Positions 28,995-32,164 of a stretch of DNA of 64,000 bases are shown here, in pieces. Within the stretch, counting starts at the first letter, position 1; every line of letters begins with the position of its first letter. The stretch is from Escherichia phage vB_EcoM_E9.1: the sequence record PP886230, one strand, 5' to 3'. The position numbers were made by a program, and so were the translations under genes. The notes beneath the pieces were generated by a model that saw only the letters and a list, made by a program, of their open reading frames with translations, did no database searches and was not told where the DNA came from.

Positions 28995-29330
<336 letters not shown>

Positions 29331-29331
29331 A

Positions 29332-29514
29332 ATGACACACGAAGAATGGATGTCCAAACAGCATAAAGAACATGACTGCTTTGGGAATGGCATTCGTCAG
29401 GTACATTATGATATATTAAGAGATGAAAATCTTTTCAGGTCATATGTTTTGGATACCAGAAAACCCTGGTTTATATGCGAACTGGCATTTAGAAAGTCAA
29501 ATAATCAAAACTAA
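29332..29514 (+). CDS. MTHEEWM-family small protein
   Basis: MTHEEWMSKQHKEHDCFGNGIRQVHYDILRDENLFRSYVLDTRKPWFICELAFRK...; ATG 29332 inside track ORF 29314..29514. Confidence 0.5.
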   Translation: MTHEEWMSKQHKEHDCFGNGIRQVHYDILRDENLFRSYVLDTRKPWFICELAFRKSNNQN

Positions 29515-30079: not shown

Positions 30080-30208
<129 letters not shown>

Positions 30209-30212
30209 AAAT

Positions 30213-30314
<102 letters not shown>

Positions 30315-30318
30315 AACC

Positions 30319-30479
30319 ATGACGCATGAAGAATGGATGAATGACATTAATTTTAGATATGCAGGTTTCGGTAACTGGAGAAAGTATCATTGGGAAATCA
30401 TGTCAGACCCAGCAGAATACGATAAACTTATAAACCATGAAGCGTATCCGTGGTTCTTTATTGAAATAATGGTACGAAC

Positions 30480-30483
<4 letters not shown>
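30319..30483 (+). CDS. MTHEEWM-family small protein (54 aa)
   Basis: Below track cutoff; MTHEEWMNDINFRYAGFGNWRKYHWEIMSDPAEYDKLINHEAYPWFFIEIMVRT. Confidence 0.5.
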
Positions 30484-30645
<162 letters not shown>

Positions 30646-30653
30646 AAAAAAAG

Positions 30654-31067
<414 letters not shown>

Positions 31068-31124
31068 CTAAATAATTCAGTACTGAGGATATTAATATGT
31101 TTAAAGATGAACGTCCAGATTTGT

Positions 31125-31162
<38 letters not shown>

Positions 31163-31168
31163 GAATTC

Positions 31169-31510
31169 CACAATCAGACGTATATGGTGTAAGTTACGTC
31201 GATGCAATCCAGAACAAGATCTCTGGTACTCTAGGAAGTGGTGAATGTTAACCTAGACGGGTTTGATAATTGGACGATAGGCAATTATTACTTGACTAGC
31301 AGGTTTAAACTAGAGGTGACTATCCTTCACCAAACTGGAAAACCGGATGGACTTTTATTTAAAAGGGTAAGGCGTGGAAATATGTTTACAGTAGTTGCTT
31401 TTAGTATCCTGTACGCCCCACGTCAAGGTAGCCGAAAGGCAAGTTAAAACGGGTGGTTATAAAGCTGAATTAACAGCGACGTTTAAAAGCGTCACCATCC
31501 ATTTTTTTTT
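31169..31510 (+). ncRNA. candidate structured RNA or leader
   Basis: ~340 nt GC-richer stretch between promoter 31134 and a 9-T run at 31502-31510; only a doubtful 69-aa ORF (31238..31447). Confidence 0.25.
31478..31510 (+). terminator. putative terminator (weak stem, long T-run)
   Basis: GACG-loop-CGTC then ACCATCCA + TTTTTTTTT. Confidence 0.4.
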
Positions 31511-31526
31511 AATTAAAGTTGGTGAT

Positions 31527-32164
<638 letters not shown>

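Follow-up and report, generated by a model that had tools for sequence, protein, structure and literature searches.

What is encoded by a stretch of some 340 nucleotides (nt) that follows a strong phage promoter, ends in a run of nine T and contains little that looks like a gene? The question is raised by positions 31169-31510 of a 64,000-nt DNA of Escherichia phage vB_EcoM_E9.1 (sequence record PP886230), the whole of which is called the window here. Judged by its sequence, the window is that of an Asteriusvirus-like jumbo coliphage; its positions 30600-32100 share 95-99% identity with Asteriusvirus jumbo coliphages (CMSTMSU, PBECO4, 121Q and others). An earlier note on this DNA had treated the stretch as a single promoter-to-T-run unit and had offered a structured RNA, a decayed gene or a regulatory leader as explanations. 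We find that the stretch is non-coding and consists of two separable RNA modules that differ in distribution, module 1 at 31166-31352 and module 2 at 31367-31500. The region is very probably a non-coding RNA (ncRNA) locus, and comparison of sequences points to module 1 as a new, covariation-supported and pseudoknot-rich phage RNA family of tRNA islands. Of the three explanations, the structured RNA stands, strongly for module 1 and moderately for module 2.

Fold and covariation of module 1

The elements of module 1 comprise hairpins (P) and pseudoknots (PK), as follows.

31166-31352, + strand: module 1, structured RNA of ~185 nt with seven hairpins and two to three pseudoknots, from covariance model and covariation
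31177-31182/31195-31200, + strand: P1
31209-31213/31222-31226, + strand: P2
31230-31235/31252-31257, + strand: P3
31264-31272/31282-31289, + strand: P4, with the conserved loop GACGAUA at 31273-31279
31290-31294/31300-31304, + strand: P5
31315-31319/31327-31331, + strand: P6
31335-31338/31343-31346, + strand: P7
31296-31313, + strand: PK5, an H-type pseudoknot of the P5 loop CUAG (31296-31299) with CUAG (31310-31313), with the A-rich linker UUAAA between them
31322-31352, + strand: PK2, a pseudoknot of the P6 loop AUCC (31322-31325) with the 3' tail GGAC (31349-31352), with hairpin P7 between them
31168-31241, + strand: PK1, a probable pseudoknot of the 5' leader CCAC (31168-31171) with GUGG (31238-31241) in the P3 loop

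The model was derived by hand on a MAFFT alignment of 11 sequences and extended to 14 by means of a covariance model (R1), which scores the window copy at 217.7 bits. Pairing was compared with slid controls, in which the pairing partner was moved by 1-3 columns. In the model-based alignment (A3), 90.5% of the cells of 53 pairs are paired, against 30-44% when slid, and compensatory double changes occur in 34 of the 53 pairs, against 6-17. The covariation score is 0.414, compared with at most 0.109 in the controls, and none of 500 shuffles reaches the observed values. The MAFFT alignment, which is blind to structure, gives 89.9% paired cells, 26 compensatory pairs and a score of 0.356. Compensation is also seen in close relatives: locus L108 has GAUGAUUG/CAAUCAUU in P4 and AGUUG/CAGCU in P5, Proteus phage 1 (Pp1) has GGUAA/UUACC in P6, and Morganella phage vB_Mm5 (Mm5) has AGCGUA/UACGCU in P1. 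Frequent G-U pairs in P4, P5 and P7 fit the + strand only, which indicates that this is the transcribed strand of module 1.

Since the pseudoknots were left out of the covariance model, their support is independent of it. Every cell of PK5 is paired, with CUGG/CCAG in KP13-16, L111 and L035 and CUAG/UUAG in RaK2. PK2 has two covarying pairs, one seen as A-U (5), G-C (4) and G-U (1) and the other as U-A (8) and C-G (5), and even within the closely related group it occurs in the forms AUCC/GGAU, ACCC/GGGU, GCCC/GGGC and GUCC/GGAC. For PK1 the forms are CCAC/GUGG, GCAC/GUGC, CCUCA/UGAGG, CUACA/UGUAG and AACUCAU/AUGAGUU; this probable pseudoknot is the weakest of the three and rests mainly on one covarying pair and the 7-bp version in L035. 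Outside the helices, the residues GACGAUA, CGGG, UUGAC..GCAG, AGAGGU, CAAAC and AUGG are unpaired and invariant. Upkeep of pairing by compensatory change beyond controls, which marks structured ncRNAs in general, is thus found in module 1 and, more weakly, in module 2.

The stretch might instead hold a real small protein gene, with its RNA structure incidental. Its one reading frame and the gene beyond it are these.

31238-31447, + strand: spurious open reading frame (ORF) of 69 amino acids (aa), overlapping both RNA modules, not conserved and without a protein family
31527-31898, + strand: gene of a 123-aa protein downstream of the stretch, PHROG 38341 (function unknown), preceded by a Shine-Dalgarno sequence, GGTGAT, at 31521-31526

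The 69-aa ORF is present as the earlier note had listed it, and the doubt expressed there about its ribosome-binding site was justified: it starts with GTG and has no good site. Only the nearest relatives, Asteriusvirus genomes from E. coli and Salmonella phages, keep it open, and some pipelines annotate it. In these intact copies, all differences from the window inside the ORF change the amino acid (I>V, F>L, T>K, V>E, I>S, A>V). Elsewhere among the relatives, where the note had proposed that conservation be checked, the frame is broken or truncated and not conserved: it stops after 15 codons in the Klebsiella phages and at codon 3 in PM2 and Sdy006, is frameshifted in TH47 and is shifted by a 1-nt insertion in Mm5. 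The ORF further straddles two modules that occur independently, and its product has no family in PHROGs or Pfam. We conclude that the ORF is spurious and not a protein-coding gene, and hold the opposite view to be scarcely credible. Nor is the idea of a decayed gene borne out, the substitutions in the helices being compensatory.

The note had also remarked that a longer ORF, 31395-31898, crosses the T-run and that the real gene most likely starts at 31527. This start is supported: positions 1-123 of the PHROG 38341 profile align to residues 1-123 of the product that begins there, and the PBECO4 and SP27 records annotate the gene from the equivalent position. Several GenBank records carry calls of the 69-aa ORF and of a 167-aa ORF, which should be replaced by ncRNA features, and the start of the downstream gene should be moved to the equivalent of 31527.

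Distribution, tRNA context and spread of module 1

A BLAST search of 50,697 phage records gives a match in 56. The genera concerned are Asteriusvirus, Alcyoneusvirus, Bragavirus, Novosibvirus and Ishigurovirus, in addition to one Stephanstirmvirinae phage, and module 1 is also found in the uncultured phages L011, L035/L106 and L111. The full 356-nt query is matched only in Asteriusvirus (96-99%) and in the Alcyoneusvirus phages RaK2 and K64-1 (~81%, with a 40-nt insertion). The first half alone (~31164-31350) shares 85-93% identity with T4-like Bragavirus phages of Proteus, Morganella and Shigella and 84.5% with T5-like Novosibvirus phages of Proteus, and is partly conserved in Aeromonas Ishigurovirus and in Klebsiella phage KP13-16 (Stephanstirmvirinae). 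In Bragavirus, Novosibvirus, Ishigurovirus and KP13-16 the flanks cannot be aligned. Module 1 has spread horizontally between phages.

All copies that were found belong to phages. The pattern GACGATA..TGACTRGCAG..AAYYAGAG is found in six metagenomic contigs, all phage-like, and in none of 185,579 species genomes of bacteria and archaea; of 42 loci that a looser pattern picks out in such genomes, the model confirms none, the best scoring 14 bits. A search of 72,556 plasmids and of 5,426 genomes of E. coli gave no match to module 1, which argues that in its sequence it does not mimic a host RNA and that prophages do not carry it. Looser DNA patterns in IMG/VR yield 87 loci, with L035 as the only new member; further looser-pattern searches (11 and 16 loci) give nothing new, and BLAST with diverged members as queries adds no phage lineage.

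In phages other than the jumbo phages, module 1 lies within tRNA polycistrons, with the neighbours listed below by phage.

PM2, Pm5461 and Sdy006: upstream tRNA-Gly, downstream tRNA-Asp
Proteus phage 1 (Pp1): upstream tRNA-Leu(UAG), downstream tRNA-Ser
avDM6 and ZPAH1: module 1 directly after tRNA-Pro; tRNA-Thr ~80 nt downstream in avDM6
KP13-16, L111 and L035/L106: module 1 directly after tRNA-Leu(UAG); tRNA-Ser ~55 nt downstream in KP13-16
Mm5: upstream protein-coding sequence, downstream tRNA-Glu

Where module 1 is flush with a tRNA (PM2, Pm5461, Sdy006, Pp1, avDM6, ZPAH1, KP13-16, L111 and L035), it starts 0-3 nt past the CCA end of the upstream tRNA, and in PM2, Pm5461, Sdy006, Mm5 and Pp1 it ends ~10-15 nt 5' of the next one. 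The copies of the jumbo phages (the window and RaK2) and of L108 have a promoter of their own instead; that of the window nevertheless lies inside the tRNA island, between the tRNAs at 30119 and 31930. As its downstream neighbours vary (tRNA-Asp, tRNA-Ser, tRNA-Glu, tRNA-Thr, promoters or module 2), module 1 does not serve as a leader for one specific gene, and the regulatory leader of the earlier note is unlikely for this part of the stretch.

Several further features adjoin these copies. tRNA-Leu(UAG) lies immediately 5' of module 1 in four lineages (L004 2423-2499; L007 2356-2433; L111 468-545, minus strand; L035 4290-4374), which hints at an ancestral unit of tRNA-Leu and module 1. Homing-endonuclease genes, of the HNH or the segD-like GIY-YIG kind, stand immediately upstream of the unit of tRNA and module 1 in four lineages, L035, L111, Sdy006 and ZPAH1 (coordinates L035 3639-4127; L111 536-1141, minus strand; L003 1835-2440; L009 1139-1498). 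These endonucleases are a plausible vehicle for the horizontal spread, and apart from them no neighbouring protein is common to the lineages with module 1. KP13-16 (L007 ~2626-2680) and L111 (minus strand, ~160-277) carry, after module 1, a T-arm-like hairpin with a GUUCGAnUC loop and an acceptor-like strand ending in ACCA; the element resembles the 3' end of T4 RNA C, and the strand CUGAAGC in L111 duplicates the 5' strand of P3. A segment of ~80 nt with two hairpins lies between module 1 and tRNA-Thr in Aeromonas phage 65 (L005 2590-2669) and is shared by L006 (2590-2667). In the GenBank record of Mm5 (L002), all tRNA genes are annotated on the strand opposite to that called by ARAGORN, which is the coding strand of the protein genes; this is probably an annotation error.

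Could module 1 be a novel catalytic RNA, self-cleaving or of another kind, with a part in cutting the transcripts of tRNA islands at the borders of the module? Phages commonly carry small ribozymes, whose cores typically combine several pseudoknots with many invariant nucleotides that are unpaired, as module 1 does, and the borders of module 1 coincide with the processing sites of the neighbouring tRNAs. However, such junctions are already processed by host RNase P and RNase E, and the jumbo-phage copies, with their own promoter and no flanking tRNA, keep the full fold. No known ribozyme class matches, and no conserved cleavage-site signature can be defined. We consider a catalytic role in processing quite improbable.

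Promoter, module 2 and modular gain and loss

The remaining elements of the stretch and its promoter are given here.

31134-31162, + strand: sigma-70-type promoter, TTGACT, a 17-nt spacer with the palindrome CAGTACTG, and a TG-extended TATAAT
31353-31366, + strand: AU-rich linker between the modules
31367-31500, + strand: module 2, confined to the RaK2/121Q clade
31371-31377/31418-31424, + strand: outer helix GGCGUGG/CCACGUC of the 5' domain of module 2 (within 31367-31440), from RNAalifold and pair counts
31387-31391/31409-31413, + strand: nested hairpins inside the outer helix, UACAG/CUGUA
31431-31440, + strand: GCC-GAAA-GGC hairpin of module 2
31451-31500, + strand: 3' three-way-junction cassette of module 2, with the closing stem GGGUGGU (31451-31457)/ACCAUCC (31494-31500)
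31464-31477 and 31478-31493, + strand: the two hairpins within the three-way junction
31502-31510, + strand: T9 run directly 3' of the closing stem, a possible leaky terminator tail to judge from the letters

The boundaries and composition that the earlier note had described are accurate. The promoter matches 11 of 12 consensus positions as well as the TG of the extended -10 element, and its 22-mer core TTGACTAAATAGTTCAGTACTG occurs in four copies in the window, where none is expected by chance. The transcription start is predicted at ~31168-31171. The G+C content of 31169-31510 is 40.4% against a window mean of 33.4% (98th percentile among 342-nt windows), and the T9 run TTTTTTTTT at 31502-31510 is the sole one in 64 kb. 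The tRNA island around the stretch has tRNA genes at 29017, 30119, 31930, 32174, 32257 and 33998.

The idea of a single unit holds in part, as relatives combine these pieces differently. Module 1 occurs alone in EJP2 (at this site) and in L108, and module 2 alone behind the same promoter in JNE01. The same promoter is found directly 5' of module 2 in JNE01 and directly 5' of module 1 in L108. RaK2, K64-1, KP13-7 and the metagenomic locus L109 have a separate promoter between the modules, in a ~40-50-nt segment at the position of the linker (TTGAACAAAATGTTCAATAATGATATAAT in RaK2). In phAPEC6, G17 and Sharanji, BLAST matches the first 40 nt of the query only; in phAPEC6 (L166 ~795-860) a deletion has left a scar, where the promoter and ~37 nt from the 5' end of module 1 run straight into the downstream gene. 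Between its modules 1 and 2, L108 contains a third structured region of a different kind (metagenome contig JACCDR011713278.1, minus strand; module 1 at 804-1002, module 2 at 294-423). A helix of ~20 bp, AUCAACGGUGAGUAACAUUG/CAAUGUUACUCACCAUUGAU, closes this region of ~190 nt, which has a promoter to itself, is absent from the window and is probably another structured tRNA-island RNA.

The consensus fold of module 2 (39 pairs, -40 kcal/mol) is identical to the minimum free energy fold of the single sequence, with z = -2.26. Pairing reaches 98%, with 6 compensatory pairs against 0-1 when slid; the outer helix, for example, is GGCAUGG/CCAUGUC in KP13-7 and GGUGUGG/CCACAUC in L108. Because divergence is low, this covariation is modest. 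The closing stem of the three-way junction is found as GGGUGGU/ACCAUCC, GGAUGGU/ACCAUCC, GGAUAGU/ACUAUCC and GGAUGAU/AUUAUCC.

The part that forms the three-way junction represents a diverged copy of a ~60-nt cassette that recurs and is both promoter-like and terminator-like. With the form GGNUNGU-UAUAAAKCUGAAUUGACAG-hairpin-ANNAUCC, the cassette resembles a sigma-70 promoter, but covariation joins its two ends in a 7-bp stem. Further copies are found after tRNAs in RaK2, L109 and EJP2, and one stands in the promoter position of RaK2 module 1 (TTGACA-17-TATTAT); they lie at 2455-2495 and 4098-4159 in L008 (RaK2), 381-440 and 1753-1822 in L109, and 1530-1590 in L100 (EJP2). The window copy has degenerate hexamers (TTAACA and CACCAT), so the best reading of this copy is the structured end of a transcript, perhaps a leaky terminator.

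A cis-acting leader for the gene at 31527, be it an attenuator, a riboswitch-like element or a put-like antitermination signal, could account for the stretch, or at least for module 2 and the T-run. An early promoter stands immediately before the region, the gene start with its Shine-Dalgarno sequence lies ~20-30 nt 3' of module 2 in every genome examined, and in the E. coli and Salmonella phages the closing stem abuts the U-run. In the window this 7-bp stem directly precedes A+U9, although a simple scan calls no canonical hairpin-plus-U terminator. The run has 7-9 T in the E. coli and Salmonella relatives and is not conserved in the Klebsiella phages, where AAATTTTAATTT is found. Moreover, the genes 3' of module 2 are unrelated across phages (123-aa PHROG 38341 in some, a 47-52-aa protein in others), which speaks against a gene-specific leader role for module 2. 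EJP2 has a partial copy of module 2 between two tRNAs, and Rfam gives no riboswitch match. Such a leader is improbable for the stretch or for module 2 and the T-run, although for module 2 the leader of the earlier note is a possible reading.

Several observations weigh against an ncRNA locus. Folded as a single sequence, module 1 has an energy that does not stand out (z = -0.85), so the case for it rests on comparison across ~6 lineages. The per-sequence complementarity of PK1 is significant only in L035 (P=0.009, 7-bp version), and the predicted transcription start (~31169-31170) may clip part of PK1 in this phage. The six compensatory pairs of module 2 were counted on a structure derived from the same alignment, and a decayed promoter cassette might account for most of its 3' part. 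In the window copy, PK2 contains an A.C mismatch, where other Asteriusvirus copies have GUCC/GGAC, and the inner hairpin of module 2 a U.U mismatch; the copy may be slightly impaired by both. Finally, the modules are dispensable in close relatives.

The dispensability and frequent deletion of the element, the degenerate cassette and the two mismatches would all suit a decaying remnant or passive spacer, made of promoter and terminator debris and the scars of mobile elements, with no function of its own. Neutral debris would not be expected to keep up its pairing by compensatory change across ~6 lineages, and module 1 is maintained at 85-93% identity across unrelated phage families with unalignable flanks. 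We regard a mere remnant as very improbable and retain the ncRNA locus as the best explanation.

Other observations concern the surroundings. At 31064-31093 lies an additional degenerate copy of the promoter repeat (TTGACT..GATATT), in a ~70-nt segment that is absent there from phAPEC6 and JNE01. Directly 3' of tRNA-Ser (30119-30208), an odd tRNA-like gene at 30213-30291 scores 29.3 bits with the Rfam tRNA model, exactly the threshold; it is not called by ARAGORN and resembles a degenerate tRNA-Arg(UCU) with an aberrant D-arm. Tandem paralogous small ORFs at 30319-30483 and 30480-30644 (and 29314-29514) encode ~54 aa each, all with the motif MTHEEWM, and at the equivalent place JNE01 and phAPEC6 each have three tandem 165-bp ORFs.

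Proposed action and relation to known systems

In the mechanism that we propose, host RNA polymerase would transcribe the region rightwards from the early-type promoter at 31134-31162. Module 1 would be an autonomous RNA gene whose seven hairpins are locked by PK5, PK2 and probably PK1. In most other phages it would be made within tRNA polycistrons, and the jumbo phages would have acquired a promoter for it instead. Its release would most likely depend on the enzymes of tRNA maturation, with RNase P acting at the downstream tRNA and RNase E together with 3' trimming at the upstream one. Upstream of the gene at 31527, a fraction of the transcripts would probably stop at the three-way junction of module 2 and the T-run.

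The presence in phage tRNA islands of stable RNAs other than tRNAs, namely RNA C and RNA D, was recognised in early work on T4, and module 1 may accumulate as a stable RNA in the same way. It would act in trans through binding of a protein or a small ligand and not by antisense pairing, possibly as a decoy for a host tRNA, RNA or defence factor; binding in trans is suggested by the invariant unpaired residues held on a pseudoknotted scaffold. Its frequent loss in close relatives and its spread across phage families lead us to expect an accessory function in host interaction. Any one specific mechanism for module 1 is nonetheless a doubtful choice. More speculative is a wider view, in which module 1 would be a mobile class of functional RNA, not described before, that is traded between phage tRNA islands, probably carried by the adjoining homing endonucleases, and acts in infection either as a new ribozyme or as a decoy or sponge for a host factor, for which a defence nuclease that targets tRNAs, an RNase and an immune signalling molecule are examples.

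How does module 1 relate to what has been described? Its kind, the extra structured RNA of a phage tRNA island, is already known, while this family and its fold are not in Rfam 15. The Rfam scan that the earlier note had proposed returned no family match beyond tRNAs. On the whole window it gives six tRNAs only; at 31100-31560 with E<=10 it gives three noise hits of 12-14 bits, none at the gathering threshold; and in ten homologous loci it gives tRNAs only. The families not matched include tmRNA, RNase P RNA, 6S, group I and II introns, riboswitches, small ribozymes, ROOL, GOLLD and raiA, and ARAGORN finds no tmRNA in the window or the related loci. No description of the module 1 RNA was found in the searchable literature, with a catalogue of 10,006 viral candidate RNAs (PMC10690425) outside the comparison.

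Some resemblances were considered and set aside. Likeness to a group I intron, RNase P, a T-box, preQ1-I or a hepatitis delta virus (HDV)-like RNA has no Rfam support, and the helix order fits none of them. Among classical H-type pseudoknots, such as the preQ1-I aptamer and those of frameshift signals, PK5 shares the topology, with a 5-bp stem, a CUAG loop that pairs downstream and an A-rich linker. The second loop and the ligand pocket of preQ1-I are missing from PK5, Rfam gives no match at E<=10, and PK5 is a sub-element of a 185-nt fold.

A spacer of Erwinia phage Cronus was rejected as a member, the covariance model matching only 15 nt with 6 bits. This 396-nt spacer between two tRNA-Met genes (L099 1384-1779) holds the 20-mer CAAGGUAGCCGAAAGGCAAG in common with module 2. 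Its other features are a hairpin like P5 (ACUUGCCUAGCAGGU), a long-range helix of 14 bp and a 3' end that resembles a T-arm and acceptor, and it belongs to no Rfam family. The 17-mer GGTAGCCGAAAGGCAAG, sought in IMG/VR, was likewise discarded, its seven loci having unrelated contexts apart from Cronus and RaK2.

PA5oct, a jumbo phage related to RaK2, depends on host RNA polymerase and expresses abundant ncRNAs (PMC7318152). Its ncRNA001-004 come from ORF-free regions, are 236-619 nt long and have no known homologues; ncRNA001 and ncRNA002 make up ~1-5% of phage reads and ncRNA003 and ncRNA004 at most 0.08% (PMC7318152). The PA5oct RNAs are defined by expression and not by a conserved fold. The models of module 1 and module 2 give no hit in ncRNA001 and ncRNA002.

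The closest likeness in context is to T4 RNA C and RNA D (rnaC and rnaD; species 1 and 2), which derive from the tRNA region and whose roles are unknown (PMC3014915). Like the homologues of module 1, they are non-tRNA RNAs directly after a tRNA in a phage cluster; they start after tRNA-Arg and are co-transcribed with tRNAs, a context shared by module 1 in PM2, Pp1 and KP13-16, among others. The T4 RNAs are shorter, however (119 and 139 nt), and module 1 has no counterpart of the T-arm/acceptor-like minihelix at the end of RNA C. With model R1 no hit is obtained in the T4 tRNA region (L010), and inspection reveals no sequence similarity.

To the RNAs of tRNA islands, module 1 adds a compact multi-pseudoknot family of ~185 nt that is present in well-studied, culturable phage-host pairs, the hosts being E. 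coli, Klebsiella, Proteus, Salmonella and Aeromonas. With the natural deletion variants phAPEC6, JNE01 and EJP2 and a recent transfer among jumbo, T4-like and T5-like phages, the role of non-tRNA RNAs in tRNA islands becomes directly testable.

ROOL and GOLLD are pseudoknot-rich RNAs encoded by phages and prophages, often near tRNA islands, with no known protein partner and with unknown function (PMC12286853). They illustrate how spectacular the structures of such RNAs can be. Module 1 resembles them in being phage-encoded and near tRNA islands. They differ in being 3-5 times larger (~580 to >800 nt) and in forming homo-oligomeric cages, and their Rfam models have no match here; module 1 has ~185 nt and both modules together ~335 nt, below the >500 nt expected of ROOL and GOLLD. 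They occur mostly in phages that are Gram-positive, rumen or marine in origin and in prophages, whereas module 1 was found only in virulent-type gamma-proteobacterial phages and uncultured phage contigs. Were module 1 indeed a mobile RNA class acting on a host factor, it would be a small counterpart of ROOL and GOLLD in gamma-proteobacterial phages, of a size tractable for structural and genetic work.

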